Source: Eledone cirrhosa (Eukaryota). From it: 64,000 nucleotides of DNA. The notes below the pieces were generated by a model, which was not told where the DNA came from, did no database searches, and was given only the letters and a program-made list of their open reading frames with translations. This document shows positions 1,594-35,813 of this stretch, piece by piece (the stretch's first letter is position 1; each line of letters opens with the position of its first letter). Made by a program: the position numbers and the translations under genes. The DNA is taken from contig OZ024740.1 of NCBI GenBank assembly GCA_964016885.1, positions 271,808,001 through 271,872,000 on the forward strand, read 5' to 3'.

Positions 1594-1697
1594 TGTCTAT
1601 TGAGCAAAAGCCTATGAAACGGCCAGGGGAGTGGTATGAAGCCTTTCTTACTGATAGGATCAGTATATCAAGAACAGTGAAACAAGTAGATGATTAG

Positions 1698-2140: not shown

Positions 2141-2985
<845 letters not shown>

Positions 2986-9201: not shown

Positions 9202-9271
9202 CTGGATCCACATTAAAGTTGGGGCTGTCACTGTAACTCCATCTGAGTGAGAATATACACCACCAGTTGTC
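9202..9271 (-). CDS. XYLB: Xylulose kinase exon 3 ((K)TTGGVYSHSDGVTVTAPTLMWIQ)
   Basis: 70 nt with AG/GT boundaries. Phase 2 start matches the end of exon 2. Confidence 0.95.
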
Positions 9272-11140: not shown

Positions 11141-11223
11141 TTAAAAGCAGGCACGTCTTCGTCAAATCTAACTGCATCTTCCTTGAGGATCACCAAGTTT
11201 TCATTAATGGCAATAACTTTCAG
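11141..11223 (-). CDS. XYLB: Xylulose kinase exon 2 (LKVIAINENLVILKEDAVRFDEDVPAF(K))
   Basis: 83 nt bounded by tttctag and gtaagt, phase 0/2. Confidence 0.95.
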
Positions 11224-14385: not shown

Positions 14386-14489
14386 TTTTGTTGATTTTTT
14401 CCTTTTCTGTGAAGAACATATTTAGAATCATTATCCTCATTATTACTGTTGTGTGATGAGGAAATTTGATAGAAGTGTCAGTGATAGGC

Positions 14490-15123: not shown

Positions 15124-15173
15124 TATACATATACATGTATACATACACACACATATATATATATATATACACT

Positions 15174-15206
<33 letters not shown>

Positions 15207-16075
15207 TAGGGTGGCCCTTAGCAATAGGTAATTTTCCAAAAGTTAAAATTTTGCTGCAATCAACAAAAACACAGGGTGTGCAACATTTCAACTGAATTGA
15301 ACAACTGTTAAGTGACCCTCAAACGCCTTGAAGTTGGAACATAGAATACGCAACAATTAATTCTGTTCAAAAGCGGTATACTGTTCTCTATCTTGATCAT
15401 TTTCTTTTTTCTTCTTAGAGAAAATGGACACATCCAGTCAACACGAGCAAATGTTTAAAAACGTACTGAAATAAATTTACCAATAGTTAATTTGAAAAAT
15501 TCCTGAAATAGCATGAAAAACTTTTAAAATATTAGGTTTTCTTAATAAAGCACACAACTTCTATAAGAGAAACGCATTTTTATTTACAACAATAATTACT
15601 ATAGAATCAAAAACATAATGTGAACACTGAACACTGAATATTGAACATTATTTTTGCATAAGAGAGGATTTAGTGGCAGTTGGGTATGGTTTACAGTTTT
15701 CAGTAACGATCTGTAAAACAAATTGTTTCTCACTTTCATCTTTTGTGAGAATGTACTTGTAATCCTGAATGAGTTTGACACCTCTTTCTGCTCTGCAACA
15801 TCATTCACAACAACTGTCTTCTCAAGTTTTTCAAATCCATTTTTGTAACCAGGATCATCCTGCCATGTTGAAGTGTCTTTGTCGAAGAAATCGGTGCTGA
15901 TAGAAAATCTTGTGAAGAAAATGTTTGTACCGGGAGTTACAAAAGACAAAAACTCGATGTTTGTAAAGGAAGAAAAATCATTTTGGTGCAGAATATACCT
16001 CTTCAGTTGATTATTTTCTTGTTCCTCTTCTTTACCTTTGTCTGCTTCCAGCATAACTTGAGCAATATTTGCCTT
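15207..16075 (-). mobile_element. DNA transposon remnant, probably hATm-type, with transposase C-terminus
   Basis: Terminus TAGGGTGG at ~15207. Frameshifted VVVNDVAE-(R)GVKLIQDY..LTKDE..KQFVLQ motif. A second similar terminus lies at ~16322. Confidence 0.6.
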
Positions 16076-17624
16076 AACCTCTCCTTGCTCTCCTTTACTC
16101 CTATCTATGTACTTGTTTATATACAAATACAATGAGAAAAGGGGAGCAAGGAGAAATATGAAAGCAAGGATAGTAAGGAGAGTATATATATATATATACA
16201 TATCATATATATATACATATCATATATATATACATATCATATATATATATATATATATATATTACTCAATACCGAGTACTCATTTCTCTCAGCTGTCAAC
16301 CACATATGGATATATGTATATTAGGGTGGGCCATAGCTATAGGTAATTTTCAGAAAGTTAAAATTTTGCTGCTCTCACAGCGAAAAAATAGGTGTTTGTC
16401 CTATACCTGCACTCTGTCCCCAGCTTTGCAAGTTGCCTTCCCCATTATATTTATTGTCACTTATCCTTCTAATACCAAGAATAAGTCTGAACAAGTTTTT
16501 AATTTAAGAGAAAATTATATAAGAGATAAAAGATTTTTATCTGAAAAAATGACTTTCCAGGTGAAAACTTCAAAATTTCACAGTCGGTGAGGGTTGCCTT
16601 GCAGTTGTCCGTTTGAGCTAAAGTTTTGCATAGATTGTTTTTTTTTTGTTAATTGGAATGACTTTGGTAGGATTTGAACTAGGAACATAAAGAGCCAGAA
16701 CAAGTACCACAAAGAATTTTCTTTGGGCTGTTTCTGCCAATCAACTACCCTCAATCTGCCAAATGATGGTAATGGTTTCTGATTCAGACACAAGACTAAC
16801 AACTGGTGCTTTATTTTATTGAACCTGTAAGGATGAAAACGAAAGCTAACCTCAGCAGGATTTGAACTCAAATGTATAGGACCATAACTCGTGCTGTAAA
16901 GTATGTTGTCCGACAATATCCAGATACTGACAATGCACCCTCCTCTGCCAAATAATAATAATACTTTTGTCAGTTAGTTTAATTATGTCATCACTCTGGC
17001 TCTGGAGGTACCAAAGTGTGAAAAGTTTGTGAAGTGATAGATAGTCATTTAAGATATTTTTTCAAAAATTACGTAGATCCAAATTATCATGACAAACAGG
17101 TCAATAAAGTTTAACTGTTCCTCATCTTCCCCTCTCTCTATTCCGAAGTTATTAATCCTTCAACACCAACTGAAATTTTATCTCTCTCTCTCTCCAGCAA
17201 ATAATTTTGTCCAAAACATTAGGCTTTCCTTCTTTACAGCAAACTGATAAGAAACTCTCAGGAGAGCTGGTCAGCAAAAGGTCTTCAGAGAAGAAACCTC
17301 CCTCAAGCAAGTGTTTCAGCCCTTAGCTTCTTACACTCTAAAGGGACCAGAACACATCCAGGTCATGACTCCTGGGTACCCTATTCCATTGCTTGAATCA
17401 CTGTAGAATTAGACTAATTGATATTGGTGTTAAGATTTTTGACATTACTCTTCTCAACAAATTTGTAGTGCTAGCGATGCCCATAACTGATCAAGTCTGT
17501 GAATGTATTGATCTATCTTCTGATAACTCCTGGAAGCAGGTTAGTCATTGTATTTGGTGGCTCAATTGTCACATTCAGCTCAGTGAGTAATCAGTCACTG
17601 TGGAGTGTCATAGAATTAGACAGT

Positions 17625-18030
17625 CCTCCCCCTCCTCCTGTCCGTTATGCCCACTGGCATGCAGGGCAGCAACAAAGGTTCTCCATTCCTGTCTGTCCTG
17701 GGCCAGTTTCCGGATAGTACCTAATGCGTATTGCCAAGTCTTCATTTATCTCACAATTGTTCTTTGGCCTTCCTTGTTTTCACTTGCTTTCTGATGTCCA
17801 GTGAAGGGCTGTTCTTGGGATGCTATCTTGCTCTCTTCTGAGAACATGCCCTAGCCACTTCCATCTTTTGAGGATTCTTGATATATTCTCCTGTTGGCAT
17901 CCACTAAGCAATTCCTCATTAGAGATATTTTCAGGACAAAAAATTCTAAGAATTCTCTGTGTGAAAGACCAACAATTTGGTCAGGTCATTCTCTGCCATT
18001 CTCCATCATTCTGAGCTGTACAGAAGCAGA
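17625..18030 (-). mobile_element. RTE-type LINE 3' fragment
   Basis: Minus strand shows RWKWLGHVLR and ALHWT-like residues. Confidence 0.65.
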
Positions 18031-18919
18031 CAGTATGACCAAAGTCAGGTCAAATGGAATGGACATCTAAGTATTTGAAGTAAGAGTGCTGTTTGGCAGG
18101 GTAGTGCAATACTCATCAACCTTGTAATTAAGAGAGTATTTACTAATGGTCTAATTGAGTGCCAAGAAGTCCTAAGTTAGACATTGACAATGCTGATGAG
18201 CTTGTGCTTGTCTTACACTAGATGAGTTTGCTTCCATATTCTGATTGGAAAGTCAGTGCAGTCAAAACTAAGTTGTGGCTTTACAAAAGTCAAGCAGCAG
18301 AAAGTGGAAAAGGTTTTTACATAGGCACAACCTTCAAACCATTTCACAAATCAAAAAATGATACTCGAAGGATATATTAATATAGATCATGCTTCATTTG
18401 TAAAACTGACACTCAGGCTATGCTTCCTAAGGATCAAACTCTGCTTATAAACATTTTTTTTTTTCAAGCACTGATACACTCAAATAGTCTCTACTTGTGA
18501 AAATGTGTGCTTATAAACTGAACATGTCTACCTTTTAAGGGTGCTTTTACCTCCTTAACTGAGTGCAGGTATGTGACCCAATTGCTATAAAATAACTCAT
18601 GCAAACCAAACACACTATTTTTGTATATTTAACCATTCATATTCTCCAAAAACCATTATTCATGCTGCCTGGATTGGTAATGCTGTTGATTTGCTTTTAA
18701 GACATGACTCTACGTTATCAAGACTTTACATTGGCCACAGTTGGGACCAGGCTTTCACCTGCTGAGGCCCTAAGCTATACAAAATTTGAGACCCTGAGCA
18801 TGGGTACATCATCCTTTACATTAATTCTATATTCTCAGCATTTCAAAGTCTGATCATTTGGTTATGTACATAATTATTATTTTATGTATTAATGTTAATG
18901 ATAAAGAATATATATATAT

Positions 18920-19128
18920 ATCATCACCGTTTTACGTCCGTTCTTCCATGCTAGCATGTGTTAGACGGGTTGTCCTGTTGTGGGCAGTGCCTATCATCTC
19001 ATTTCTACAGCTGAGTAAACTGGAGCAATGTGAAATAAAGTGTCTTGCTCAAGGAAACAACACATCACCCGGTTCGAGTATTGAACTCACAACAATTGCA
19101 AGCCCAATGCTCTAACCACTAAGCCACA
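18920..19128 (-). mobile_element. Family B SINE (internally deleted)
   Basis: Matches the head and the ggacgtaaaacggtgatgat tail of 63008-63444. Confidence 0.8.
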
Positions 19129-19365
19129 TACATACATACAAAGAGGGTGTGGTAAGATACCAGGTGGACCATAACGCACCAGAGTACTCAATACTGAGGA
19201 TGGGATGAGAAGGAAGGATGACAGGAGAGTGTGAGTGATGGGTTACACATGGAAGTGAGTGATAGATGCCAGCTGAGTTTCGTGCAGGAGAGAAAGTAAT
19301 GGTTAGTGGTAGAGGGTGACGGTAATGAATATGAACATAAATTATGGATATCATATCAGGTGGAT

Positions 19366-19567
19366 ATACAAGGGTCGCCTGAAAAGTTCATAGACTGACT
19401 AAGATACTCTCATGGAATGACCAAATGAGCTTTATTTTTCAACATAGTCGTTGGAAAGAAACAATGCAGTTATTAATAAGAAGAGTTGAAATTAATGCAT
19501 GCAAGATTTTACAGCTCTAGCACCACTCCTTCATAGTCAGCCTATGAATTTTTCAGTCCCTCATATA
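19366..19567. mobile_element. Tc1/mariner-like MITE
   Basis: tacaaggg..tgaaaagttcatag / ctatgaatttttcagtccctcata. A related copy lies at ~43957-44140. Confidence 0.65.
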
Positions 19568-22500
19568 AGCCTATATGTAGCTAAGTCATATTAACAGATT
19601 CTGTTGATATTTAGAAACATATTTCATCATAATCTTCTATATGTGATTTTGGTGATTAAAACATCATCACGCTGCATGAGTTCCAAAGATCAAAGAAAAG
19701 TTATGAATAAACCAATGAAATCCATCTTTGGTAATCCAACAATGACAAGAAATTAACTTCATTTTAATTCAATATAATTGCTGTATATGCTGGTGTACAA
19801 GTCTCACCCATTTTGCATTCAACCGTCTTGATTTTTAGGTCCAGTAGCTAAGTCACAAGTTGGCTTTTACATATTGAGATTTTTTTTTTTTAATGGAAAG
19901 AGGTGTGACTTATACACAAGTATATATGATATACTCAATATTAAAACAAAGTTATTTCCAGCTTGATAACCTTACCACACACTTCAGTCTGATAGTTTTA
20001 ATCTTCAACCTGTTATAATCACTGTAGGTGTTGCTATAGCCCAACATGTTCAGATCCCACTAACATTATTCACACCCCTTTGTACCACACCTCTTTTTTA
20101 GAGCATGTGCTTGGGGGTAAAATTGCTTCTTCAAAAACATACCTGGTGAATTCTGCTGTTTTTAGTCATAACCAAAGTTTTGTATTGATATTCAAACAAA
20201 CTTCATTTAAACTTGAGAAAAAAAACTGTTGCTAAGATAATTGTTAAGATACCCTTTAAAAATATCTTGCTTTGAACCATGGAGATATATATAACAGAGC
20301 CTATCTGTTCACACATACCTACCCCACCAGTAAAGTGCATTAGTTAAAGGTTGATTATTATTGTAGGAAGATGTTAATAGAAGATCAAGCTCTCAATGTA
20401 GAGAACCTTCTAGAGATTCTGTAGTGCTAGTCTTTACAATAAAAATATTTAAGCAGTTTAATGTTGTCTTGTGAAATGCTCAAGTCGCAAAAACGTGAAA
20501 ACAGGCTGGAAAGTGTTCCCTAATACTAGATGTCCTTTAGCAAACGCTGTAGTTCACTAGCATTATACTGAGACGTTTCTCTGGATAGAAGAATAGGATA
20601 CCAGTCTATCCTAGACCTGAACTTAGCGATATAAGCTAACAAAATATCTTAAATTGATTTTATACAGTTGTCAATGTAAGCACCATTGACTGTTCCTAGC
20701 CTGTATTATAGTTAGCTTTCAAATTGTAGTAATCCACCTAAGTGTTTTAGCTACAGATGTAACACAGTGCTAGTGTCAACAAGATACCTCTCCAAATAGT
20801 TATTTTGTTATCTACCAATTTGGTAATCCAAATTTCCTTTTTTAGTGCTGGTGTCTTACATTATTTCATTTATGAAAGCCAAAGAAAACATTTGGAGATA
20901 AAGCTCTAGGTATTAACAAATTTCTCTAATACTTCTGTTATGATAAAATGTTGGCATAATGGCTGATACTAGGGGAAAAAAACATGCCCACTCCTAAAAT
21001 CCTCAGTCAAATCTTAAGCAAAACACTAGCCAGAAACACCAAGATGCATAGCAAATTCTTCAAACATATGTGAAGACCAAGAAATGGAGAAGGATGTTAG
21101 TTTTACAAACTTATATCATAATGATGGTCGCAATGGTAGACAAATTCTTCAAACATTTGTGAAGATTAAGACAGAGATGGATGTTACTGTTTTACAAACT
21201 TATATCACCATGATGGTGGTAATGGTAGACAAAAGCAATATTTTAAATAAAGAAAAAGAACATTGTCAGACAAGAAAAATATGCATGGATTTTGTTCAAA
21301 TTATTTACCTGAGAAATAAAACATATAAAACAAAACAGCAAGCTAGTATTTTCAACATTTCTTTTTAATGAAATATCATGAAATCAATGTAATTATTTAA
21401 TGGAAAGTATCTTTTTTTTAAGTTTATTTATTAATTTAGAATTTCTTTTTATCTTTCTCTCATTCTATTTCATTCACTTTTCCTATCTTTCTCTCTCACT
21501 CTCACTCTTTTCATCTTACATATCAAATGGAGAAAGACTCATAACAATGTCTACCTCTCTATTTTTTAATAAAACAGTTTCTTTGTATTCAATTCTTGTC
21601 TTTATATATTTGGTATGTTTTTTGGTGTGATGTATTTTTCCCCTTCTATTTTCATCTTTTTCTTGTTTGTCAGTAGTTATATTTTCATTGAACACAATGT
21701 TTTACAAATAAACATGAACACAAGAGAAAAGAAAATTAAACAAAAATATACATATGGAATAAAATAAAAGAACTGGGTTGTATTTTTTTCAAATATTTGT
21801 ACCAATTTTTTCCCTTGTTTTTCTTTTTTTTAAAAGATGAATACTTATTGAAAAGGCATCCTATTGCACTAAATTTAATAAAATGGTCTTAATCCTTTAT
21901 CCTTTTTGCTGTCTAATTCTTAATAAAGAAAGCTGTGCAAATTATTATTTCCGAGTTGAAAACTAAAAGGTGCCATATACTGACAGGTAGTTTAATCTCT
22001 AACACTGGCAACAAGGCCACAAATTACGGGGATGGGGTAGGGGCACAGTTAATTAAATCAGTACTTAACTGGTACTTGATTTTTATCAACCCTAGAAGGA
22101 TGAAAGGCAAAAATCGACCCTGGCACAATTTGAACTCAGTATGTAAAGAGATGTCATTAAATACCCCAAGGAATTTAGTTGTGCACTCTTATCAAATCTG
22201 CCACTTCACTGCCCTACTGAGAGATATCATTTTTTTTTTTCAAATCAGAAACTATTTGAAATAAAAAGAAATTATATTAATTCATTTTTTTTTAACATCA
22301 CAAAAATGTTCTAATTTTTTCTTAAAAGAAAATAAAAAATACTTAACATAAAAGTTACCAAAACCAGAGAATGGTGACTCTAAGAAAGAAATTACACAAA
22401 AGCTTTTTTTTTCATCTAATTACATTCAACACCCAACTATCTGCAGGTAGTGAAAGAACAGGATACAATAATAATTTTATCTGAAGCATCAATAATGCTG

Positions 22501-23273
22501 ACTAATTTGAGCTAAACGAGCAAATGTTTTGTCTTTTTGTTTTATTTTGTTTTTAGCTCAGAATAAGGTTTCCCTTTTCTCCAAAAAAAAAAAAAAAAAA
22601 TGAAAGAAAAATAAAATAAAATCATAAACAATTTAAAATAGGTATATTGGAACACCTTTGCATATTTATAATTTTTGAATCATATATCTCCACGAGGTTT
22701 TCTATCATCATCATCCTTCTACAATACTTCTTCCTGTTTCAAATAAAACAACTAGAGTCTTGTTTATTTTCTGTACTTGGTTGCAGTAAATCTGCTCTTT
22801 TCTAAGATCCAATCAATAAACTCTTTGTTGAGTCATTGAATGAAAACTTTTCAGAAAATGAACTCAGAATTTATTCTGTAAGTTCGAACCCACAAGAGGC
22901 AGTGTCATCAAAAATCTTAATTCTGTGTGTATGAGTGAGTGTATTGGCAAGGTTATGTTTGTTTACTTCATTTTTTTTTGTAGTTGAATAGTTTGGATTT
23001 TTTTTTAAAACATTCTTTTCTAATTTTTCTTAAAGATGGAGATTGAAGACAGAATAATTATGAGTGACCAAGTGAGGGGAGATTGATGAAAACAGAAAAT
23101 ATAAAAGAAAGAAGGAATTAGTAAAAGTCTTAAAGTATGATAGATATGTAGAAGAAAAAAGAGAGAGAGAAGAATAATGGTAGAATATGCAGATTAAAGA
23201 ATGTAAATAAAACGTTAAGGAAGTCAAAGTAAAAAGTGGAAATGTGGTAGAGAAGAGCCTAGCTAAATGTGTG

Positions 23274-26200
23274 TTACTTGAGGCCAAGAAATCCATACAA
23301 GTGTTCAATATGTTTTATAACAGTGTCTAAGAAATTGGGTTTTTCTCTGTGGATGGACCGTGCCCCAGAGATAGCTGTGGAAGTGGTACTGGTAGTTGTG
23401 GTTGTCGATGTTGTTGTTCCTGATGTTGTGGCAGATGCTGTCTCCTTGTTAGGGCTGTGTTGTTCACATTTCGTATCAGTTTCTTTGCCTTCTTCTGAAG
23501 ACAGCCTACCACTACCAGACTGACCAGCACCGCTACCAATGCCACCAGTTCCACTTAATGAGCTTTCAGATGCTATCTGGAAACTAGGAGACACCTCTTC
23601 AGCGTTGTTGTCAGTCTCCATTTCATCAGGGTCATTACTGAATCGCTGGCGCTTCGTAGGTGTCTCCATAGACTCATCTGCTTCAGAACTGTTCAAGTGT
23701 TCTGAGCGGGTTAGCTTTTCAGCTGTTACTGGGACTTCTGTTAATGTCTCAGTAGTAGTAATAGAAGAGTCGATGTTAATGCCTGGATTGATACTAGTTG
23801 TGGGAGATGAAGTAACAGCCGATGAAGTTGGAAGAGGACTGGAAAGAGGTGATGATGAAGATGTCTTACTGCTGTTTGGAGCAACCGTTACTGCAGTGGA
23901 AACAGTAGAGCTAGCAGCAGTGGTAGTATTTGTAGTAGTTGCTGTGGTAGTAATTGCAGTAGTAGATAAGCTAACAACACTAGTTGAACTGACAGCAACT
24001 GAAGTATCCTCGTTTTCAGATCTCTGGCGTTGTTGGTAATCACAACACACTCTGTGGATGTGTTGTAGGCTGTCTGTAAGTAAACTACTAAGTTGTTTAG
24101 GAGGTTGAACAGAAAATATTAAAAGCATGGCTCTTAGGTCACCATTAATGCGTTGGCAGATAGAAAAAAGTTCTTGATCAGTTTTTACATTTTCTGTTGC
24201 TGATTTTTCAGCAGTGATAGAAGCCACAAGACTATCAAGTAAACTTTGACCTTGGTCGTTGAGTACTTGTTGATGAACCTTAGGAAAGAAATTGCAGAAA
24301 AACTGGTAGATTATAGGGCTGTTAAGGGACATGCGTTCGTCCAATAGAACAGCATTGACATACTCAATGAAATAATAGCTGTTACACAAAACTTTTATGC
24401 AACTCTTATCAAATTGCTCTAAGTGATAGATTTCATTCCACAATTTGGCAAAATACAGTGAATGAAGGGGAACCCCTTCATAAGCAACCATTGCACTCAG
24501 ATTGATCAAGTCTTTAGTAAGGTTATGTTGATTGACAGCAACCCGGCATAGCAAGTCAATAAACAGGTGATATTGAGTGAAGAAGTCAGACAGTGCAGCA
24601 TCATAACAATCATCAACATTTCGGGAAGCTTCCAGCTGGTTGGAGTGTAGCAACATCTGAAACTGAGGCCTTGGTGGTCTGACATTAGATTTAGAGCAGA
24701 TGGTCTTTTGACCTCTGCGTGGGAAGTAAGGACCAACAGACACTGGCAGGTTGGTGTCCTGAAATGCTTTGTGGGAATCTCGCAGAATTGTAACAATAGT
24801 AGGGATTATGTCCTTTTGGAAAGTGAGTACCATTTCTTTCAGGACTTCAAAACAACTCTGACGGATTTCAGGTGGAGTATAAGAATTCAAGAGAGTAAGA
24901 AGCTTGCGAACAAACTCTGCTCTTTCATTCCAGTTAAAGATGCATTCCTTTACATGTAAAGTACTTGGGTTCTTCCGTTCCAAGTAATGCCTGGCAACTT
25001 TGAGAACAGGCAATAGCAAGGCAAGGAGTTCAACAATATCGCCAGTCACATGACACGCTGTAGCCTCATGGTACATCACATGAAGAGTAAAGAATGCTTC
25101 AGTAATCATCTGCAAACCTTGCTGGTAAATAATGAGTAGTCTGTCATCTGTACTATCAACTAGAATTTTGAAGCTGTTGATGAGTGTTTGCCAGCCAGAT
25201 CGAGCGTCTAAGTGCTGCAAATACATCTGAATAGTAGTTCGCCTGAAGTTGTTGATTGCCTTTAATTCTTCTTCTGAACTATCTTGGTGCTTCATGGACA
25301 TAACTCGCATCATTTTGAAGAGTTCTTCAACAGCAGCAGTATACTGGGCAGGATAAGGAGAAATGTTCTTAAATGCCCACAGAATATTTTGGTGCTGAGC
25401 GAGCTGCCTTGTAAAAGAACGAGACTGTTGACAGCAGATGCGCAGCAGGCCGTAGTAGGCTGGCAACATACAACGGTTGAACATGACAACTTCCTGATCA
25501 TCGTGGTCAGCGAGGATATAATTAAAAGCAATATTTTTACAGACATGTGTGTTGGTGACAATAAGTTTTACATTCTCTGGGCAGTCTAGACACACTTGAT
25601 ACCAGAACATAAGCATGGCTTGCTTGTTGTGGTGCATTGAGATCTGAGGTTCTGATAACTTAGGTTGAAACAGTTGCCATAAATCAGCAAAATAGCGGCC
25701 AAACATTAACTTTTCCTTTTTAGAAATCAAACAGTAAGTGACGACAGCAAAGTAACAAACTAGTTTGCTGGTGCCGTGAACCTGTGGGTCAACGTAGAGA
25801 CGTGCACGCGACAGCAGTGATAACAAATGCTCATAGATTTGATGTAAAACAGCTAGTGCATCCGAGGAGAGAAGCAGTTCTTTATGTGGACTCAGTATGC
25901 TTCTAGCTGTACGGAATGCTTGTCGAAAATTCAGGCTGGGAACTAAGGAAACCAATAAGAAACTTGCTGCATTTCTTACCCGTACATTGCCATGAGCAAT
26001 AAGATAACCTTCAACCCAATTGTCCATTTGCTGCAGTACCCATGCATTGGCAATTTTATTCCTAGTGACTAAATTCGAGAGCCATTCAAGACACTGATGA
26101 GGACAACATTCTGTGAGCTCCCAAAATCGCTGAAGGATATATTGTAAAAAGGGAGGCATCCCTGGTGGACCTCCGATGAATTCAACTAATAAAGACATTA

Positions 26201-29200
26201 ACTTAAAAAATGGCTGTGCCTGTTCTGCATTCAGTTTCTTGACAGCATTGAAAAGCATCTGAACAATTGCCAACGCCAAAGAGTCGTTCCATCGACAGAG
26301 ACTAAAAATTAAATTGCATGTTTGCCGTACATTAATATGGTCTTTAATTTGATTGTAAAGGAATGGAAATCCTTTGCCACCAATGATGCTGTTATAGTCT
26401 TTTTCAGAGAGGCGTAACTGATTGTCTTCTCCTCGAGACCTCTCCACTAGCTGTGCAATCAGTGCTATCATTTTATCCAATGCCAGAGGTCTGTGCTTGT
26501 CTTCAGGCATTGCAATAACATCATCTTCTTCGTCGTCATCTGACAATATTTCAACGTAATTTTCTTGAGCTTTCTGACCCATATAGAAATTAACAATTGC
26601 TGATATAGCGTTGTTATTAATTAAGAAAAAACACTCTTCATCTCCCATTTTGGCAAATTCTAGAAGAAAACTGAAATATTCCGTTAGGTACTTGCTGTGA
26701 GGTCGAACACCTTGCTCAAGAATTGCTAACATACGTCTGATAAATTTGGTAGCACATGTCTGACCACTGAGGCTGTTGGATTTGGTTTGGTCATCATTTG
26801 GATTCCCTGAGGTTAAAAGGTCATACTGGGCACTTTTAAGTTGTGTAATCACATGAACTAATAACCTTTGGAACATCTGGCGCACCATTTGGTTAGGACA
26901 TTTAATTAATATCTGCTGAGGCCACCAATCACATTCTGCCATATGCTCCAGAAACCATTCACATGCAGCTTGGCAGGAATTAAACTGCTTTGTTAGAAGT
27001 TCAATCCACTGAAGCATAGTAGGTTTTTCTTTGGCATGAATATGTGTTTCTAAGACAAATGACGCACTCAACTGTGCAACCATCAGAGGCACTTTTCTTG
27101 GGTCATCTCGAGGTAATGTCGTCTGAATGTAACCACATAACTGTAGCATGAATCCAAAATAAGTGTGCTCGAATATATTTTTATCTTGTAGAAACTGCAT
27201 GTTGTCTTGCCATATCCAGTCAGCAAGTTCCTTTGACAAATCAAAGTTGAATTTTTGTGGTGGTTCTGATGCAGCATCAGATTCTTCATTAGGCACTTCT
27301 TTCTTCTTCGGAGAACACCGTTCATAAAATAACATATAGGCACTGTTGGTCTTCTCAAAAGAAAAATCCATGAATTTGTCAGTAACAGAATCATACGTTT
27401 TACTCGTCATTTCACCCCCGAAACACTCTGCGGCTATTTGGCTAGGATCAAATGGTTTCACTTCAGCATCATTAAATAGGTACCACTTGTCAAATCCAGT
27501 CTTAGATTGACTAATACGATCTCTGATGAAACTATAGTAGTGGCCTCCATCGGCAGTTCCCGTGTGCACAGTTACTCCAATCAGTTCATATTCATGACAA
27601 TCAGATTCATCTTTTGTGAACGTATCGTTCTTGTCATCTTCATCTTGTAATTTATCTGGTCCCATTAAGTTCACTTCCATGTACTGAGACATATCCAAGC
27701 GCAACGGAAAAGAAAAATGTGTATTTACTTTTTCTTTCATCATAGTGACCATATTGAAAGTGTATCGCATGGTATTAAAACACAAGATCTTGGGAAGTTT
27801 TCTGAAACATGCCCGCTTTTCAGCACGGACTTTCTTTTGACATTTCGAGCAAGTATACATATTGTCTCCTTCTAGCATATCTTTTACTGTAACTTCATCT
27901 AATGAGTCATATAGATTTTTCATGTCAGTAACTTGACAACGGACAGTATAAAACTCTTCAACTGTGCGACTAACATGTGGACAATCGAGAGAAACAACAT
28001 TATTAGTTAGTACACCTCCAAATAAACTTTTCACAAGTTTTTTCATATCTGCAGACATTTCTTCTAGTTTTGTTATTAAATCAGTAAAGAACTCAGTCAT
28101 ATCTTTTTGTTCTCCTGTATTTAGAGGTTGTTTGTCCATGGTGTATGTCTTGCAGAAGCTCTTTGGGTTATAGGCTTTTCTTTCACTTTCTTGAAGGTAA
28201 GCAAATATTTTTTGAAGTTCAATCAGTGTTGCTTCATGCTTTGTCTGGTCTGTGCATTTTGCTTGTAAAACTGACTGCCTCGCTTGTGGAATCATGTACA
28301 AATGCTGCATACAAGTAGCCATATAACATGTAGCTCCAAGGTTAGTCAAACCTACATAGCCACATTTTGATCTTCCATCTTCATGTGGCCAATAATCCCA
28401 TGGGTAGGGAACATGTGAGTCTTTACTATGCTGCTTCATCATTTTCTCATGTAGAATAGCATAGTTTTCAACACTACCCTTTACCATTTCTACTAGCAAG
28501 TCATAAGCAGCAGCTCGAGATGCTTGACTTTTACACTTGGGCAACTTTCTGTTTACTGGTGATGGCAATGCAAAGAGACACCAAAAGATGTCTTCCAGAA
28601 ATACTCTACCATTTTCAGATGTTTTGAATGGGGGTTCATGTTTTAAAATAGCAGTACAAAGATTTAAAAGACCAATCAGGGCATCATCCTCCTCATAGCC
28701 ATTCCTGGTTTCATAAAAAGAGCGAGAGATTATATGATTAGCAATTTCTTTACATAACATGTCTAAATTCACAAGACTGTCAGATTTAGTATTTGCATCT
28801 TCTTTTGAAATATTATCAACAAATCTGCATACCAACCAGAAGTAGTCACGGCATCCAGGACCGTATGTCTCTTTCTTTTCCTCTTGTAGGTAGGCATCAT
28901 TTACTCGAGGTTTTATTAATAAAGCTTCTGGCAGAAATGACAGCATACTAGACAATATGGGTAACAGAAATGCATAACCATTTCTGTTTTCGGAAGTCTT
29001 TCCCAAGCATAATTGATAAAGTCCTGTACAAACTTCTTTGCGGACACAGGGTTCTGGAGCTTCCAGTGTTAATCTTTTCAACCAAGAATTAAAATTTGGA
29101 GATGAACAAAATGCATCCTTTAGTTCTTCACATGAATATGCCCAAGATACGAGAAAATTTAAAGCATAATGAACAACTTCCGACCTCCCCCAAGTTCCTG

Positions 29201-32200
29201 TATTGCATAAATTGTTTTCTATTGGTATAGCAGCATCAAACAAAATTTGCATGATGATTTGTAAGTCTGTATTGACATTCAGCATTGACAGAATAGTTTG
29301 GTTGAGACGAGGTACAACAATTTTATCACAATTACTTTTTTGACGTTTCATTTTCTTACGGGGTAATTCATAATTTTCAAAAAGGTCATCATGGCCTGCT
29401 TCGGCATCTGACCTCTCCACAGAAAACTGACTTATTAGACGTAGTAAATAAGCCAAGCATTCTTGATTCCACTGGTTCCAAGTTTCATCTGCTTTAGCTT
29501 GCAGTGTGCTTGATTTAAATATATCAACTAAATGGCTGAGTCCTCCTTTTGAAATGAACTGTTTGGTCCAGACTTCTTCAGGAACTTCTGGACCTTCCAT
29601 AACTTGATCGCTCTCGGCATCCCCTCCACCTCCAGATCGAGAAATTGATTTTTTTTTACTTTTAGGATTTTTCGACAATGCTTCAACAATCTGTAAGGAA
29701 TACATTAAACGGTGCGGTCTCTGTGGGTCTAGCAGACGATTCCAGTCAATAGGCTCTTCAGATGGAGTCTCTTCTTTGTAGGGAGTGGATGGCATAATAC
29801 TTCGGAAGCCGTATAACATCTCAGGACTTGTTGGTAATAACATCAATAATTCCCACACTCGGCGAGAAAATATTTTTGCTTTACTTTGTAAATTCCATCT
29901 TTCTTTACTTTCTAAATCAGCCGTTGAAAAGCTAAGGTTACTAAGTTGCTCCAGCAAAGTAAGAAGACGCTCAAAGCTAGGCTCTTGCAGAAGAATCATC
30001 ATGGGTAGCTGTTCAGGACTAGGAGATGGCAGGCATGACGATGGTAATGTTCCATCCATCTTTCTCTGGGGTCTACTTGCACCCACAGAAACAAAAACAA
30101 GTTGCAAATCCTTAAACTGCATTTCACTTAAAGTTTTCTCATCATTGTCTACAGTAAGCTCCTGCCCAAGAGTAATCATCCGTATTGGCCCATCTCCTAG
30201 CATAGCGCCAAGTATAGGAGACAACATCGAATTACCATGGTTACTAGAGGACTGTTGACGTTGAAGTTGTTGCTGTTTCTGGAGAGCTTCCCACCAACGA
30301 GCAACTTCAGCACGTAATTCTGCAATGAGATCAGTAGACAACATGTCTAAGGGAGTCTTTTCAGAGATACCAGCTGGTTGTAAGAGAATTCGGATTGGGC
30401 TTGACTGTTTCTCATGAACATTACATTGGTGACTCACAATACCATGGCCATCAATTTGCCAGTTTCTGAGGTGATAAGCATATCTTTTTCGAAAACCTTC
30501 CAAGTGATTTTTTAACAAAATCAAACCTCTTTGAATAACAAGAAGATTCATGTCGGGATTTTCTTCAACTTTCTGAGAGGCAGTTAAAAGACTGTCCATG
30601 CATCGACGAATAAATTCATCTTCTTTTTCTAAAAGTCCATTTCCATAATTGATGTAATAGTTGTTCAAGAACTGGATGGCTGTGATACTGACATCTGTAT
30701 TCAAAGCCCGTAGAGCAATTTGCCACAGCTGGTCCATGCCGCACACTTGGTCCTCAGACAATTGATTATCTATAGAAGCATTTGCAATTCTTGCCAAGTG
30801 TGATAACTGTTGGAAAAGATTCAAACCAATCATACTCATTGATTCAGGTTTAAGCTGAGGCATTTTCTCAAGAAATATGTGCTTGAATGTTTCCAAACAC
30901 ATGGCATGGTGATGCTCTTTGCTCTTGGCTTGATTAAGAAACCAGCTCAAGCATTCATCAGAACATTCTGGATCTAAAGCAAGACAAGCCCACAAAGTAT
31001 CCACTTGTTCTTGACTAAGACGGAAACTATCTGGTGATCCTGGAGCACTGAACACACCAGTTAAAAATAGAAGCCTCACTTTAATTTGTTCTTTGTGACT
31101 GTAAAGGGATGTACTTTTCTGCAGATCACATTTTCGGCTCTCAGTGTAGTGGATGAGATCGCTAAAAAAATGAGACATCATGTTCAGTTCTTTTTCTGCC
31201 CACATAGTCACAGCATGATTGTCAGAACCACTCCGGTACTGTTGAAAAGAGCTAAAGATTTTGGGCAGAAGACGCAGAGATACCACTACAGACCGGTGCG
31301 CAGCCACATTTTCAATGCATGCTTCAATGAACTTGATTTTAATGCGCCTATCTGTTGAAAAGCACACTAAAGTGTAAAGAGCTTTCTCTGCTTCAACAAC
31401 CAAGCCATCAGGTAGCAAACATGCCATGTCATCTTGCACAAGATCCCAGAGAAGTGTGTTCCCTTTCTTGCAGACATCATCAAATGTAAAATCAGTACAA
31501 GATGAAACAGAAAGTTCTTTCTGAGATGGTCTTGGATGAATGACATGAGGCATGTGGGTATGATACATTGATGCCATACTGGCGAGATGTTGTTGCATTT
31601 GGTGTGTATTGAAATGAGGATGTGCATTGATCTGAGCTAATTCCTCATCACTGAGAACTTCTTCCCCATCAAAATCTGCCATGTTTTTTTCTGATTTCGT
31701 ACTCATTCTAGAACTGTGGCAGCTACCTTCAGGACTCAATATGTCCTCAATATAGTCACTCTGGATATGTCCATGTGGGTGAGCTTGCATATGTTGGATA
31801 TAATTAGCACAGTCAAACATTTCGGCTTCATCAGCACGGTTCTCAAACTCCTGAGCAGATTGGGAGGAAGCCACACCTTGAATACTGCTGTCAGCACTGT
31901 CGTGGTTGGCTAATGTGGACGGTCTGGCTTCAGAATCATGAGAATCTCGTGAATCCTGCGACAAGTTACCAGGATCTGAAATAGCCATTTTTTTTTCACT
32001 GTCTCCACCAACTTCCAAGTCTTTACAGTGACCAGTAATACCATCACTATCACCACGAGCTTCAAGAGAAACCGAACCAGGATGCAAGCTTTGTTGAATT
32101 CTGTTCTGATTTTCTGACCTCTGTAACCCTGTCCGTATACGATAGCCTTTCTTACCTTGTCGCCGAAGAACAAGACAAGCAGGTTGTTTAAGAAGTCCTT

Positions 32201-34550
32201 GCTGTTGGAGCTGTATATGATGTTCTTGCAGTGCATGTTGAGTCTCGTAACGAAGTTTTGTCTCGTGCATTAGCTTTGCTCTTCTAGATTCATTAGCATC
32301 AAAATCTGAGCTGTCCTCACTCTCACCATGACAAGAATGTTTCATATGTACCATTTTAGTATGCTTTAGAATGTCATCATCAGATTCTTCATATTCTGAT
32401 TCCATTTCTTCCTCTTCCTCTTCTTCTACTTCTTCCTCCTCCTCCTCTTCTTCTTCTTCCTCCTCCTCTTCTTCTTCTTCCTCTTCTTCATCATCATCAT
32501 CTTCATCAGAACATGTACCTTGCTCTGTATCACGGTAAGCTTGAGCATTTCGGTTTCTCTGGGGTCTTGGTTGACATTTTAATGGTACTGGCTGTCTTTT
32601 GACACCCCGACGTTTTTGCATTCCATGTTTCAGTGAAGTGCATATTTGACCTTCTCCAGCACTAGAACCACTGCACTCTACATCACTTTCACTACCACTA
32701 CTGCCACCTCCCACCTGGTTAGGGGCCACAAACTCTTGGCCAAGGCCAGTAAGCTGCCGATGAGTACCTTCATCCATGTCACTTTCATCACTGTTGTCGC
32801 TGTTAGCCGAAAACTGCTCAGAGCTTTTCTGCTGTTTCTCAGAACAGTCATCATGCTTTTTGGAATGAGAAATCTGATGTCGTGTTGAGCCAGGTTTATT
32901 CTCAGCCTTGCTCAACTCCTTTTGATCATCCTCTGATGGTAACTCCTCATTTTTGTTATCAACCATTCCAATTCTTTTGTTGCTGTCCATCTCAGGGACT
33001 TTGTCTGTTTCCCCCTCAGAAAGTTGTAGGCTTTCACTGCTACTCATTTCAGGCTTGCTTGATTTACCATGCTCCAATTCCTCTTCTTCTTGTTCAATAG
33101 CAGCCACAATGCTCTGTGGCTGGTCAGCTGGTTGTTGTTGTTGGTGATGGACGGCAGCATTATGGCTCTGTGATGTAACACAAGTACTCCAGATGCACTT
33201 GAGGAGTGCAGATGCTAAGTATAAAGTAGATTCTGTGTGTGCAGAGGGATCAAGAGCAGATACTAAGTTAGATAAATGCTGAACCAATTGTAGTTCTAAA
33301 TTTTTTATAAGTGGAATCAATATATCATAAACTTGCTTACTGCAATGTTTCATCTGACTGGCAGTCCATATACAGTCGATATGTTCATTCGTGATTTTTC
33401 CTTCAACGGCAAGAAAATTTAAAATAATCTGGCTCTGTTTAATGATTTCCACATGCAAGTTTGGACCAAAAATATGCTCAATAATCTTATTTTCTAAAAG
33501 CCATTTAGCTAAATGATTTCCTACATTTTCTGCATCTACTAAAGTATCATTATTGCAGCATTCATTATACAAATCAATCTGACGGTTAATCTGAGCTATA
33601 CCCGCCAGTCGAATTGTTAGAGTTGAACAAGTAAAATATTTAAAGGCTAAATCCAAACCTTCTTTGTCATACGTAAAATGAGTATCCAATGGTTCTTTTA
33701 CAGCTGCCCACATGAGGTCTGTCATGTTCCGGGTGCCGGCCATTCGTAGGTCTTTATCGGATAATTTACACATATAACGAATAACAGCAGTTCGTAATGG
33801 CACAATACATTGCATCACAGTAGCGATATTCATCCAAAGACGAAGATTTGCGATAATATTGATGAGAGTATGAGCCACTGTGAATGGGAGCGTGTCCGGT
33901 GTAGCTTTTTCGAAGCATTGTTGCAGTGCCTGGACACCGTTACTATCACAGAAAAAACAAACATTGCGCAAGAGATACAGAGGAACTTCAGAATCGGAGA
34001 TTTCACAATAATTATTCAAAGCTCGAGTTTCCTGCTGAGACAGTTCTTCTAGAGATGAATGAACGACATGTTTGTAAGCCACATACGAGGGGAAGTTCAT
34101 GAGAAAGACTTTCGTAACTACCTGAAGTAATTGGTCTTTTTCTTCCATGGCCCAAACTTCGGATTCATCGAGTTCTTCTGCATCATTTTTTTCCGTTTCT
34201 TCCGATGACAAGCCATCAATTGATGATTTGTTCTTGTCAGAAATATCAGAAACAGCATCTTCGGAACAATGATCACGCTTTTCTTGTTTTTCTTTTTCCT
34301 TAGCGTAGTCATCAGGCAGAGTCTGAATGTGCCTAATCGCAACAGTCAACACGATTTGAACAATATTGTTCAATCGTTCAAAGTTCTTAAATTCTTTGTA
34401 GCAGCACATACATTGCTTCTGAGGCCATATATTTACGTATTGAATCACAGACAGAATCTCATTCTTTCCCAGACGAAGACCACCACCGCTGTGAAGCCGC
34501 TCATCGTGGCTATCGAATAAGGACAACAGGCCAGAGCATACATCACACAT
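23274..34550 (-). CDS. USP34: Ubiquitin carboxyl-terminal hydrolase 34, single coding exon, 3758 aa
   Basis: Starts MCDVCSGLL..GGGLRL..INIWPQKQCMCCYKEFK-like, resembling the USP34 N-terminus. Cys box GLTNLGATCYM, His box VHTGTADGGHYYSFIRD, WYLFND, and conserved C-terminal blocks (NIAFNYILADH). No stop or intron over 11,277 nt. The ORF-track start at 34571 is a TTG; the first ATG is at 34550. Confidence 0.96.
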   Translation of the reverse strand: MCDVCSGLLSLFDSHDERLHSGGGLRLGKNEILSVIQYVNIWPQKQCMCCYKEFKNFERLNNIVQIVLTVAIRHIQTLPDDYAKEKEKQEKRDHCSEDAVSDISDKNKSSIDGLSSEETEKNDAEELDESEVWAMEEKDQLLQVVTKVFLMNFPSYVAYKHVVHSSLEELSQQETRALNNYCEISDSEVPLYLLRNVCFFCDSNGVQALQQCFEKATPDTLPFTVAHTLINIIANLRLWMNIATVMQCIVPLRTAVIRYMCKLSDKDLRMAGTRNMTDLMWAAVKEPLDTHFTYDKEGLDLAFKYFTCSTLTIRLAGIAQINRQIDLYNECCNNDTLVDAENVGNHLAKWLLENKIIEHIFGPNLHVEIIKQSQIILNFLAVEGKITNEHIDCIWTASQMKHCSKQVYDILIPLIKNLELQLVQHLSNLVSALDPSAHTESTLYLASALLKCIWSTCVTSQSHNAAVHHQQQQPADQPQSIVAAIEQEEEELEHGKSSKPEMSSSESLQLSEGETDKVPEMDSNKRIGMVDNKNEELPSEDDQKELSKAENKPGSTRHQISHSKKHDDCSEKQQKSSEQFSANSDNSDESDMDEGTHRQLTGLGQEFVAPNQVGGGSSGSESDVECSGSSAGEGQICTSLKHGMQKRRGVKRQPVPLKCQPRPQRNRNAQAYRDTEQGTCSDEDDDDEEEEEEEEEEEEEEEEEEEEVEEEEEEEMESEYEESDDDILKHTKMVHMKHSCHGESEDSSDFDANESRRAKLMHETKLRYETQHALQEHHIQLQQQGLLKQPACLVLRRQGKKGYRIRTGLQRSENQNRIQQSLHPGSVSLEARGDSDGITGHCKDLEVGGDSEKKMAISDPGNLSQDSRDSHDSEARPSTLANHDSADSSIQGVASSQSAQEFENRADEAEMFDCANYIQHMQAHPHGHIQSDYIEDILSPEGSCHSSRMSTKSEKNMADFDGEEVLSDEELAQINAHPHFNTHQMQQHLASMASMYHTHMPHVIHPRPSQKELSVSSCTDFTFDDVCKKGNTLLWDLVQDDMACLLPDGLVVEAEKALYTLVCFSTDRRIKIKFIEACIENVAAHRSVVVSLRLLPKIFSSFQQYRSGSDNHAVTMWAEKELNMMSHFFSDLIHYTESRKCDLQKSTSLYSHKEQIKVRLLFLTGVFSAPGSPDSFRLSQEQVDTLWACLALDPECSDECLSWFLNQAKSKEHHHAMCLETFKHIFLEKMPQLKPESMSMIGLNLFQQLSHLARIANASIDNQLSEDQVCGMDQLWQIALRALNTDVSITAIQFLNNYYINYGNGLLEKEDEFIRRCMDSLLTASQKVEENPDMNLLVIQRGLILLKNHLEGFRKRYAYHLRNWQIDGHGIVSHQCNVHEKQSSPIRILLQPAGISEKTPLDMLSTDLIAELRAEVARWWEALQKQQQLQRQQSSSNHGNSMLSPILGAMLGDGPIRMITLGQELTVDNDEKTLSEMQFKDLQLVFVSVGASRPQRKMDGTLPSSCLPSPSPEQLPMMILLQEPSFERLLTLLEQLSNLSFSTADLESKERWNLQSKAKIFSRRVWELLMLLPTSPEMLYGFRSIMPSTPYKEETPSEEPIDWNRLLDPQRPHRLMYSLQIVEALSKNPKSKKKSISRSGGGGDAESDQVMEGPEVPEEVWTKQFISKGGLSHLVDIFKSSTLQAKADETWNQWNQECLAYLLRLISQFSVERSDAEAGHDDLFENYELPRKKMKRQKSNCDKIVVPRLNQTILSMLNVNTDLQIIMQILFDAAIPIENNLCNTGTWGRSEVVHYALNFLVSWAYSCEELKDAFCSSPNFNSWLKRLTLEAPEPCVRKEVCTGLYQLCLGKTSENRNGYAFLLPILSSMLSFLPEALLIKPRVNDAYLQEEKKETYGPGCRDYFWLVCRFVDNISKEDANTKSDSLVNLDMLCKEIANHIISRSFYETRNGYEEDDALIGLLNLCTAILKHEPPFKTSENGRVFLEDIFWCLFALPSPVNRKLPKCKSQASRAAAYDLLVEMVKGSVENYAILHEKMMKQHSKDSHVPYPWDYWPHEDGRSKCGYVGLTNLGATCYMATCMQHLYMIPQARQSVLQAKCTDQTKHEATLIELQKIFAYLQESERKAYNPKSFCKTYTMDKQPLNTGEQKDMTEFFTDLITKLEEMSADMKKLVKSLFGGVLTNNVVSLDCPHVSRTVEEFYTVRCQVTDMKNLYDSLDEVTVKDMLEGDNMYTCSKCQKKVRAEKRACFRKLPKILCFNTMRYTFNMVTMMKEKVNTHFSFPLRLDMSQYMEVNLMGPDKLQDEDDKNDTFTKDESDCHEYELIGVTVHTGTADGGHYYSFIRDRISQSKTGFDKWYLFNDAEVKPFDPSQIAAECFGGEMTSKTYDSVTDKFMDFSFEKTNSAYMLFYERCSPKKKEVPNEESDAASEPPQKFNFDLSKELADWIWQDNMQFLQDKNIFEHTYFGFMLQLCGYIQTTLPRDDPRKVPLMVAQLSASFVLETHIHAKEKPTMLQWIELLTKQFNSCQAACEWFLEHMAECDWWPQQILIKCPNQMVRQMFQRLLVHVITQLKSAQYDLLTSGNPNDDQTKSNSLSGQTCATKFIRRMLAILEQGVRPHSKYLTEYFSFLLEFAKMGDEECFFLINNNAISAIVNFYMGQKAQENYVEILSDDDEEDDVIAMPEDKHRPLALDKMIALIAQLVERSRGEDNQLRLSEKDYNSIIGGKGFPFLYNQIKDHINVRQTCNLIFSLCRWNDSLALAIVQMLFNAVKKLNAEQAQPFFKLMSLLVEFIGGPPGMPPFLQYILQRFWELTECCPHQCLEWLSNLVTRNKIANAWVLQQMDNWVEGYLIAHGNVRVRNAASFLLVSLVPSLNFRQAFRTARSILSPHKELLLSSDALAVLHQIYEHLLSLLSRARLYVDPQVHGTSKLVCYFAVVTYCLISKKEKLMFGRYFADLWQLFQPKLSEPQISMHHNKQAMLMFWYQVCLDCPENVKLIVTNTHVCKNIAFNYILADHDDQEVVMFNRCMLPAYYGLLRICCQQSRSFTRQLAQHQNILWAFKNISPYPAQYTAAVEELFKMMRVMSMKHQDSSEEELKAINNFRRTTIQMYLQHLDARSGWQTLINSFKILVDSTDDRLLIIYQQGLQMITEAFFTLHVMYHEATACHVTGDIVELLALLLPVLKVARHYLERKNPSTLHVKECIFNWNERAEFVRKLLTLLNSYTPPEIRQSCFEVLKEMVLTFQKDIIPTIVTILRDSHKAFQDTNLPVSVGPYFPRRGQKTICSKSNVRPPRPQFQMLLHSNQLEASRNVDDCYDAALSDFFTQYHLFIDLLCRVAVNQHNLTKDLINLSAMVAYEGVPLHSLYFAKLWNEIYHLEQFDKSCIKVLCNSYYFIEYVNAVLLDERMSLNSPIIYQFFCNFFPKVHQQVLNDQGQSLLDSLVASITAEKSATENVKTDQELFSICQRINGDLRAMLLIFSVQPPKQLSSLLTDSLQHIHRVCCDYQQRQRSENEDTSVAVSSTSVVSLSTTAITTTATTTNTTTAASSTVSTAVTVAPNSSKTSSSSPLSSPLPTSSAVTSSPTTSINPGINIDSSITTTETLTEVPVTAEKLTRSEHLNSSEADESMETPTKRQRFSNDPDEMETDNNAEEVSPSFQIASESSLSGTGGIGSGAGQSGSGRLSSEEGKETDTKCEQHSPNKETASATTSGTTTSTTTTTSTTSTAISGARSIHREKPNFLDTVIKHIEHLYGFLGLK

Positions 34551-34595
34551 TCTCGGAATCTTGGGAAACAACGCAAGGAATTCTTGCTGAATAAA

Positions 34596-34613
34596 TTATA
34601 AGCGACTCGGCAT
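34596..34613 (-). promoter_or_regulatory. Short upstream ORF (MPSRL*) in the putative USP34 5' leader
   Basis: ATG CCG AGT CGC TTA TAA, in frame with the main ORF and stopping 45 nt before its ATG. Confidence 0.45.
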
Positions 34614-34700
34614 GACAGAATCACAAAATCGAATCGAACGTGAGAAGAAGTTTTTGTTTTCCATACCTTCTTTTTTTTTTTTTTTCAAGCATTCAACAAT

Positions 34701-34710
34701 CCGCCATATT
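34701..34710 (-). promoter_or_regulatory. YY1-type motif near a putative USP34 transcription start
   Basis: ccgccatatt (minus strand AATATGGCGG), 150 nt upstream of the ATG. Confidence 0.45.
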
Positions 34711-35750
34711 TGTTTTTAGACGTTTTCTTTCACCGGGAAGAGAATTGGGAGATAAATTTAAACCAGAGTGACCTCCCTTGACAGAAACAAATTTTCTTCA
34801 ATTTCATTTGTGCAAAATTTGCTACAAACAACTTTATACAGTAACTTTCTTCCTCGCAGTATTTAGAGAAAATGGCAATGTTTTAAGCTTAATCCGATAA
34901 ACGTTGAGAAAGTAAACTAAAACTGTTACATCAGAACAAAAAACACAAACGGAAATTCGAATGTTTTTGTTTACCTCTGCTTCTCCTACCTCATATACTC
35001 AATTTAAAGTTTTTTTTTATCTCCGACAATAGAGATTTCACCCTCTGTTCTAAACCCCAACGTGTTTATTTCCCTTTTATTCTAATTTTATCATCGTTTT
35101 AATTTCTTTCATAGTAAGCACGATTTTAAGCCTATTGTCTTTATACTGACTTTTAGGTATTTCTAATAGTAACTCATTTTATCGATCACAAAGAAATGAA
35201 ATACAAAGAAAGTTATACTTGAACTAAATTTAGCATTTAGTCTAATGGCTGGCACTGCAATAAAATATTAATTATTAATACCATACTAATGTTATAGTTT
35301 TTTATTTATTTTGTCAACGTCTAAAATTCTCCGTAACAAAATACAATATATCGAACTCGAAAACTTTTTAGTGATTGTTTTTTTTTTATATTGTTTTAAA
35401 TAAAATAATTTTTAATCGATATATGGAAGACTATTTTTGGAATTATTTATAGGTTTAATAGCAGAAATTTAACATCAGAAATTTAACATCATCGTACTTT
35501 TGACGAATTTCAAGACACCAATAATTAAAAAAATTATTATGAATAAAAATGTTAGTATTAAGCAAAAGTTTTACAGAGGGAAGTAGAAGTATACATCGTT
35601 ATGGAAGTAACAAGAACCTTGTTAGAGACTTTGTAAAACTCAACGCAATTTAAAGCTTTATTATCATTCAGCTTTAGTTGTGAAAAGGAGGATGAAAATT
35701 TAAATAAATAAATGGAAAATAAAACTTTAAGAAATATGTTAGTGCCTTAC

Positions 35751-35813
35751 TTGTTGAGTACTGAAGTCAAATCCAAGAAATATTCGGTCGCTGCAAATGT
35801 TAGTGCTTGACAT
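35751..35813 (-). CDS. XYLB: Xylulose kinase exon 1 (MSSTNICSDRIFLGFDFSTQQ)
   Basis: ATG, the conserved LG.DFSTQQ motif, then a gtaagg donor. 63 nt, phase 0. Confidence 0.95.

Follow-up and report, generated by a model that had tools for sequence, protein, structure and literature searches.

USP34 in Eledone cirrhosa is encoded by one 11.3-kb coding exon, which sits within intron 1 of the xylulokinase gene XYLB and has the same orientation as that gene. We consider it quite probable that this gene is an old orphan retrogene of exceptional size: a spliced, full-length mRNA would have been copied into XYLB intron 1, and the parent gene would later have been lost. The evidence for this reading comes from the completeness of the protein, the nesting of the gene, the absence of a recognizable parent, the density of introns in USP34 relatives elsewhere, and the split structure of most other large genes searched in this genome.

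All positions refer to the window, the 64,000-nucleotide stretch of E. cirrhosa DNA analysed here, unless another sequence is named. The USP34 frame is open on the minus strand from stop to stop over 23274-34595 (3773 codons), a length expected by chance with a probability of about 1e-101 at the local stop frequency. The coding sequence itself (23274..34550, minus strand) begins with an ATG at 34550 and specifies 3758 aa and a stop codon. A Pfam search of the protein identified the UCH catalytic domain at aa 2066-2409 (E 1.8e-48; 27324..28355, minus strand) as well as DUF3517, and the catalytic residues Cys2075 (28326-28328), His2337 (27540-27542) and Asp2361 (27468-27470) are all present in this minus-strand frame. 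The closest solved structure is the catalytic domain of human USP34 (7w3r, E 2.5e-180), USP9X being a weaker match (6.8e-60), and the domain with its Cys, His and Asp residues is thus nearest to USP34 rather than to USP9X or USP24.

Among the best 120 of 328 matches, the top named ones were mollusc USP34 proteins, with 73-76% over aa 1900-2900. Their alignment with the Eledone protein runs from residue 1 to near the C-terminus, which indicates that the entire USP34 protein is encoded. In a tree of 39 rows, the protein falls within the molluscs (support 99/99) on a branch of 0.21 against a median of 0.25. This placement and the ordinary branch length indicate that USP34 is neither foreign nor fast-evolving, and alignment and tree together identify it as a full-length USP34 orthologue of molluscan descent. 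Judging from the intact catalytic residues, the protein would act as an ordinary USP34, that is, as a large cysteine-protease deubiquitinase. An earlier sequence-only reading of this DNA had described an unbroken, full-length USP34 frame with intact Cys, His and Asp motifs, and the searches above agree with it on each of these points. Its further statement that the frame contains no repeat insertions needs a minor correction, since an in-frame (GAA)n tract encoding poly-Glu is present at 32406..32504 (minus strand). This tract is the sole tandem repeat reported within the frame, and the contigs of all runs break there.

The gene that surrounds USP34 was recognized from a series of small exons on the same strand. 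The coding part of its first exon (35751..35813, minus strand) has 21 codons and a GT donor at 35750, and the exon reaches upstream to at least 35905; we take it to be XYLB exon 1 from its N-terminal motif, and a PDB search with this exon alone gave 0 matches. Intron 1 (11224..35750, minus strand) measures 24.5 kb and contains the whole USP34 gene. Exon 2 (11141..11223, minus strand; 83 nt, phase 0 to 2) was the top-scoring candidate in an AG..GT scan, and exons 3 (9202..9271), 4 (6185..6265), 5 (4652..4738) and 6 (2893..2985) lie beyond it, all on the minus strand. Exon 6 matches residues 129-158 of human xylulose kinase 4bc2 (E 1.9e-11), a second XYLB exon matches the same structure (E 2.8e-15), and exons with GT and AG ends go on past the window into adjoining DNA (L052, L053). 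Motifs led to the recognition of XYLB, and these two exon searches corroborated it. A search with the FGGY_N family did not detect it, which shows that family models can overlook exons of 25-30 aa.

Because XYLB exons stand on either side of the frame, USP34 is nested in XYLB and not just adjacent to it. Single contigs of organisms C, E and F connect the 5' region of USP34 with XYLB exon 1, indicating that the layout is common to these relatives. The small exons and large introns that the sequence-only reading had noticed in the neighbourhood are real, with XYLB coding exons of 63-93 nt; what had escaped it is that these exons form a single gene enclosing USP34. In its first intron, XYLB apparently tolerates a complete transcription unit that runs in the same direction and carries a poly(A) site. 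Separately, a broken LINE piece with an endonuclease and the start of a reverse transcriptase lies inside an XYLB intron at 3-1596 (minus strand), and a C2H2 zinc-finger exon is located at 60992-61450 (plus strand). Elsewhere in the genome (L149:3425-4312, plus strand; G000:C19 near 15.736 Mb), an FGGY-family kinase exon forms a 295-codon open frame with most of the N-terminal domain.

That the locus is a young processed pseudogene, an artefact of assembly or DNA of foreign origin, with the true gene absent from the assembly, is scarcely credible. Contigs from 8 of the 24 listed sequencing runs were compared with the window. Those of X1, which carries the same organism label, cover 22082-32397 and 32515-36994 with no differing letters; X1 may be the source sample and so is not independent, a point that leaves some room for an artefact. 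Against it, the DNA contigs of two related species cross the frame without introns and continue into the flanks, covering 23158-32397 in organism B (144 differences, 0 gaps) and 23947-32396 in organism C (245 differences, 0 gaps). Their gapless passage through the frame indicates that it is no product of assembly, an objection that the sequence-only reading had itself raised. Contigs of organisms E and F, compared outside the middle 8-9 kb of the frame, are gapless over 32515-34658, and the uncovered frame middle of X13 and X16 was treated as a filter gap and not as evidence. Moreover, contigs of the same organism label that resemble RNA differ from the locus at 2 sites in 9.8 kb, and the protein sits inside the molluscs.

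The differences between organisms also argue for a gene under selection. The difference list comprises 40 of 895 rows, chosen by support, and within it 33 differences fall in the poorly conserved stretch aa 459-669, 27 of them synonymous and 6 non-synonymous (rough pN/pS 0.05). On this partial list, the intact frame is under purifying selection. As a separate observation, X3, X5 and X6 agree at the synonymous sites 23712 and 27597 on a letter unlike that of the window and X1; the differing letters are likely alleles.

Our searches of the Eledone genome recovered a single copy of USP34. Queries with aa 1-460, aa 2060-2420, aa 2801-3500 and 8.3 kb of DNA each returned one USP34 match, the gene itself, and none of the four found a second copy or a parent; these counts are lower bounds in a possibly incomplete assembly, which is the other point in favour of an artefact, and the aa 2801-3500 query had a stricter first look. 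The 8.3-kb DNA query was chosen without (GAA)n, a whole-frame query having been swamped by (GAA)n matches. As for sensitivity, the whole-frame query returned pieces of 84-137 bp at 76-89% identity. A UCH search of the genome gave 97 matches, including exon-sized parts of other USP genes, and among 14 Cys-box motifs in translated loci one is this USP34 and the other 13 are not USP34-like. One of the Cys-box loci, situated in a 97-codon frame, is presumably USP24-like, as its motif suggests.

Within these lower bounds, the gene has no parental copy in the genome, as is characteristic of an orphan retrogene, and the near-identical, intron-bearing parent that the sequence-only reading had allowed for was not encountered. 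Nor does the locus resemble a processed pseudogene in the sense of a disabled or neutral copy beside a living parent: the intact frame, the single copy and the predominance of synonymous differences support the functional gene that had been proposed. A distinct multicopy family with frames of up to 2230-2245 codons was also observed (L050:3-6578, plus strand; G000:C2 near 253.90 Mb). The copy scanned carries Helitron N-terminal and PIF1 helicase domains and a C-terminal USP-type (UCH) protease domain, and matches to the family also occur on C1, C3, C4, C5, C13, C14, C19 and others.

The RNA-like contigs (X3, X8 and X19; their RNA status is guessed) extend from 21482/21486 up to 34987/35003, and the pieces shown have no skips in the coding region. 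They likely trace an unspliced, ~13.5-kb transcript that begins separately from XYLB, ~750 bp behind exon 1 of that gene. The candidate 5' UTR and start region, unspliced (34551..35003, minus strand), is marked by RNA-like contigs from two studies that stop at 34987 and 35003, where DNA contigs continue. This zone is CpG-rich, with an observed/expected ratio of 1.22 vs 0.24-0.29 in the flanks, a weak hint of a start region, and contains at 34702-34710 (minus strand) a motif that we take to be YY1-like. At the opposite end, RNA-like contigs of two studies finish at 21482 and 21486 and delimit a likely 3' UTR (21482..23273, minus strand). A candidate poly(A) signal follows at 21412..21432 (minus strand), with AATAAA at 21432-21427 and then an 8-A run at 21419-21412.

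This 8-A run is too short to be called a poly(A) remnant in AT-rich DNA, and no target-site duplication was found, the longest shared word of 11 being at chance level (9-12 in shuffles). The locus consequently lacks the poly(A) tail and target-site duplication of a young LINE-made retrocopy, in agreement with the sequence-only reading; decay of both is expected in an old insertion. With regard to XYLB, a separate 1909-nt record of X8 aligns solely to 35905-35751 and departs at the XYLB donor, and we read it as spliced XYLB mRNA. A possible acceptor AG (34587..34588, minus strand) precedes the USP34 ATG by 36 nt and would join XYLB exon 1 to it in frame. None of the joints shown fuses XYLB exon 1 to USP34, and X3 and X8 contigs cross the acceptor at 34587 unbroken; a rare XYLB-USP34 fusion transcript is possible.

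The intron content of USP34 in other animals was assessed by scanning metagenome contigs, in which 78 loci with USP34 relatives were grouped by best hit and their introns placed by splice-aware refinement. The outgroup loci were grouped by best hit alone, and none is proven molluscan. Eight lophotrochozoan-like loci contain, per kb of coding sequence, 5.0-8.1 introns; at this density the Eledone gene would have ~55-90. Across four groups, for which 43 of the 78 loci were used, 21 of 132 intron positions coincide in codon and phase between two or more groups; for instance, positions 1044, 1086, 2044, 2121, 2189 and 2246 are common to vertebrate-like, lophotrochozoan-like and insect-like loci. 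Since introns are dense in the lophotrochozoan-like loci and many of their positions are shared with vertebrate-like and insect-like ones, we estimate from these sequence comparisons that about 70 introns were likely lost. The Eledone exon spans 47 lophotrochozoan-like intron positions between aa 1003 and 2778 (with a few near-duplicates), none of which is occupied here.

Mollusc proteins lead to a similar view. USP34 isoforms have indels at matching intron positions in a chiton (aa 2170), mussels (~2725), and abalone and Gigantopelta (3379). Isoforms of abalone, scallop and mussel also have in common a 17-aa skip at 169-185. In addition, four gene calls of the mussel cluster are exon-sized (42-83 aa). 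The matching isoform indels, which reveal coding splice sites, and the exon-sized calls indicate that USP34 is not intron-poor across molluscs, which had been named as a reason to doubt a retrogene.

The uniqueness claimed in the sequence-only reading was, however, overstated. Chelicerate-like USP34 loci have open frames of 1651-3419 codons (L064:389-10645, L065:7103-14182, L066:9863-17272 and L059:2-4954), that of L064 being fully open at 3419 codons. In L065 and L066 the neighbours also have long frames, as compact genomes with general intron loss would show. These chelicerate- or mite-like loci became intronless, or nearly so, independently, which indicates that such a state is reachable by other routes, and ATR supplies a second case within the Eledone genome. 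A bee-like locus (L057) retains 10 introns. Many apparent introns in the divergent loci L059, L061, L062 and L064-L067 turned out to be protein insertions, lying as they do in open frames, and these loci were excluded from the count of shared positions.

The intronless state may be considerably older than the species. The gene call P0332, 905 aa long and located on an ENA contig of 526 kb, is 90.7% identical over aa 1517-2398, a stretch in which other molluscs reach 70-72%. Its last residues are a +1-frame reading of the coding codons that follow, which indicates an unspliced call on DNA interrupted by a one-base error. The DNA behind this protein call, so far as it can be deduced from the call, has no interruption at 27 mapped intron positions, of which 14 were found in at least two outgroup loci. 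Two further calls of similar identity, P0325 and P0378, have C-terminal tails just 44-48% like this USP34; tails so much more divergent than those of the compared relatives suggest that they probably come from squids or cuttlefish. By this comparison, P0332 probably also derives from a deeper, squid-like cephalopod, and the intron loss would then likely predate the split between octopods and decapodiforms (squids and cuttlefish). Among the best 120 of 328 matches no full-length cephalopod USP34 appeared, and near records may be omitted there.

Introns could also have been lost one by one within a lineage-wide loss, like that of compact mite genomes. The intron-poor USP34 of the bee-like locus (10 introns) and of the chelicerate-like loci would suit such a history, as would the intronless ATR of E. 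cirrhosa, but we regard it as very improbable. Some of the ~70 introns would be expected to remain, the genome measures 3.0 Gb, and small exons make up XYLB and other USP genes. Control searches for general intron loss covered HECT, dynein, BEACH and PI3K-family kinases. The longest open frames had 725 codons for HECT (43 matches), 324 for dynein (96 matches) and 407 for BEACH (24 matches); with these genes split into exons, there is no general intron loss in the E. cirrhosa genome. One BEACH match (L156, G000:C14:44524462-44525073, minus strand) stands apart from the remaining BEACH loci in that one 407-codon frame holds most of it.

The PI3K-family search gave 23 matches, 22 in frames of at most 372 codons and one in a frame of 2695 codons. 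The latter is ATR, encoded in a single 2687-codon frame with all ATR domains (G000:C26:9661394-9669457, minus strand; L144:395-8458), and no second ATR copy was found in the own-genome search. Human ATR is a many-exon gene, and small isoform indels occur in ATR of four mollusc species; these two lines would place introns in ATR of the mollusc ancestor, a conclusion less well supported than that for USP34. One full-length ATR call of 2645 aa, from an ENA contig of 58.6 kb, has 87.5% identity to a cluster including cuttlefish and 64% to Eledone ATR, which hints that ATR may be intronless in decapodiforms too. Within 50 kb around ATR no host gene was recognized among open frames of at least 110 codons, a threshold blind to small exons.

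The single copy, the missing ancestral introns, the synonymous differences, the RNA-like contigs and the lack of a target-site duplication all fit the old, functional, parentless retrogene proposed in the sequence-only reading. Under its alternative, cDNA-mediated replacement, the gene would have shed every intron at its original site through one or a few long recombination events with its cDNA, and the nesting would be older or would reflect a later DNA-level move during cephalopod genome reshuffling. Such a process accounts for a single intronless copy without parent, target-site duplication or poly(A), and an in-place mechanism has been proposed for precise intron loss in a mite, according to the account of that genome in PMC7738191. 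Nevertheless, it requires either that a gene of ~70 introns was already nested on the same strand in an intron of another gene or that a second event took place, and the surrounding XYLB retains its small exons. It also sits poorly with the retention of zero 5' introns here, while that account reports greater 5' intron retention (PMC7738191). We therefore judge removal in place to be unlikely, and the same-strand nesting in XYLB intron 1 favours retroposition over it.

Under retroposition, a full-length spliced USP34 mRNA would have been reverse-transcribed in the germ line by a LINE-type reverse transcriptase, and the copy inserted ~750 bp behind XYLB exon 1, where a CpG-rich zone could have supplied a housekeeping promoter. 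Transcription of USP34 would now begin at a separate start near 35000 and yield an unspliced mRNA of ~13.5 kb, and XYLB transcripts would read across USP34 and splice it out. The retrocopy, complete and expressed, may have made the many-intron parent dispensable, leading to its loss. We infer a relocation away from the ancestral parent site; in a weak test, 8 USP34 loci with flanks, arthropod-like or unplaced, showed no neighbouring XYLB motif. RTE-class full-length LINE elements have been reported in octopuses, as outlined in PMC9115989. No particular element is implicated as the source of the reverse transcriptase.

These findings have implications for the limits of gene retroposition. Retrocopies are usually short or 5'-truncated, and to our knowledge the parent replacements described so far involve small genes. 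A complete copy of ~13.5 kb replacing a gene of ~70 introns would shift the known size limit of functional retroposition, and would serve as a natural experiment on whether a giant conserved gene requires its introns and splice isoforms at all. Together with ATR, it also raises a testable and datable question for cephalopods, namely the number of essential genes replaced, the time of replacement and the element responsible. We advance only tentatively the broader idea that, in the coleoid ancestor, full-length mRNA copies of 8-13 kb repeatedly took the place of giant housekeeping genes with many introns, USP34 and ATR at the least. If it were true, a reverse transcriptase able to copy very long cellular mRNAs up to their 5' ends would be required, no orphan retrogene on record would be longer than USP34, and wholesale retro-replacement would have moved essential genes by a hidden route, with loss of alternative splicing, during cephalopod genome reorganisation. 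Our literature search, whose scope lay outside subscription journals and supplements (where longer retrocopies may be described), found no account of an intronless cephalopod USP34 or an intronless mollusc ATR, and public octopus gene models may already show a one-exon USP34.

Comparison with known systems places Eledone USP34 at the edge of several categories. The 25 human orphan retrogenes of Ciomborowska et al. reportedly encode proteins under ~800 aa. Unlike them, Eledone USP34 has 3758 aa and would have replaced a gene of ~70 introns. It otherwise resembles mammalian orphan retrogenes as characterized in PMC3548309 and PMC4772013, with a single exon spanning the junctions of parent orthologues, an untraceable parent and strong purifying selection. 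According to these sources, the mean Ka/Ks is 0.088 for 25 human cases and promoters are often linked to CpG islands (PMC3548309, PMC4772013).

Similarly, amphioxus SYCP1 is an invertebrate case in which a large multi-exon gene was replaced by one coding exon (PMC5803294). As described there, the SYCP1 retrogene has a coding exon of ~3.2 kb, borrowed regulatory DNA from a head-to-head neighbour and gained 5' UTR introns (PMC5803294), whereas the Eledone exon measures 11.3 kb, is nested on the same strand and has no evident UTR splicing. For retrocopies in host introns, 13 cases are summarized in human and 14 in mouse, Taf9 in Ak6 being an example, with transcripts that are chimeric with host exons (PMC4772013). 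Eledone USP34 shares with these a same-strand position within an expressed gene's intron, but the RNA-like contigs indicate a separate USP34 start, and the acceptor at 34587 was not seen in use.

In domain order, length and catalytic residues, the protein is like other USP34/puffyeye deubiquitinases (7w3r). It differs from them in gene structure alone, the exon-skip and shifted-splice isoforms of molluscs being impossible from the Eledone gene. Finally, the loss of conserved introns is precise and leaves the protein unchanged, as in the mite Aculops lycopersici, for which more than 80% of genes are given as intronless in a 32.5-Mb genome (PMC7738191). Unlike the situation in that mite, USP34 is exceptional within an intron-rich genome of 3 Gb.
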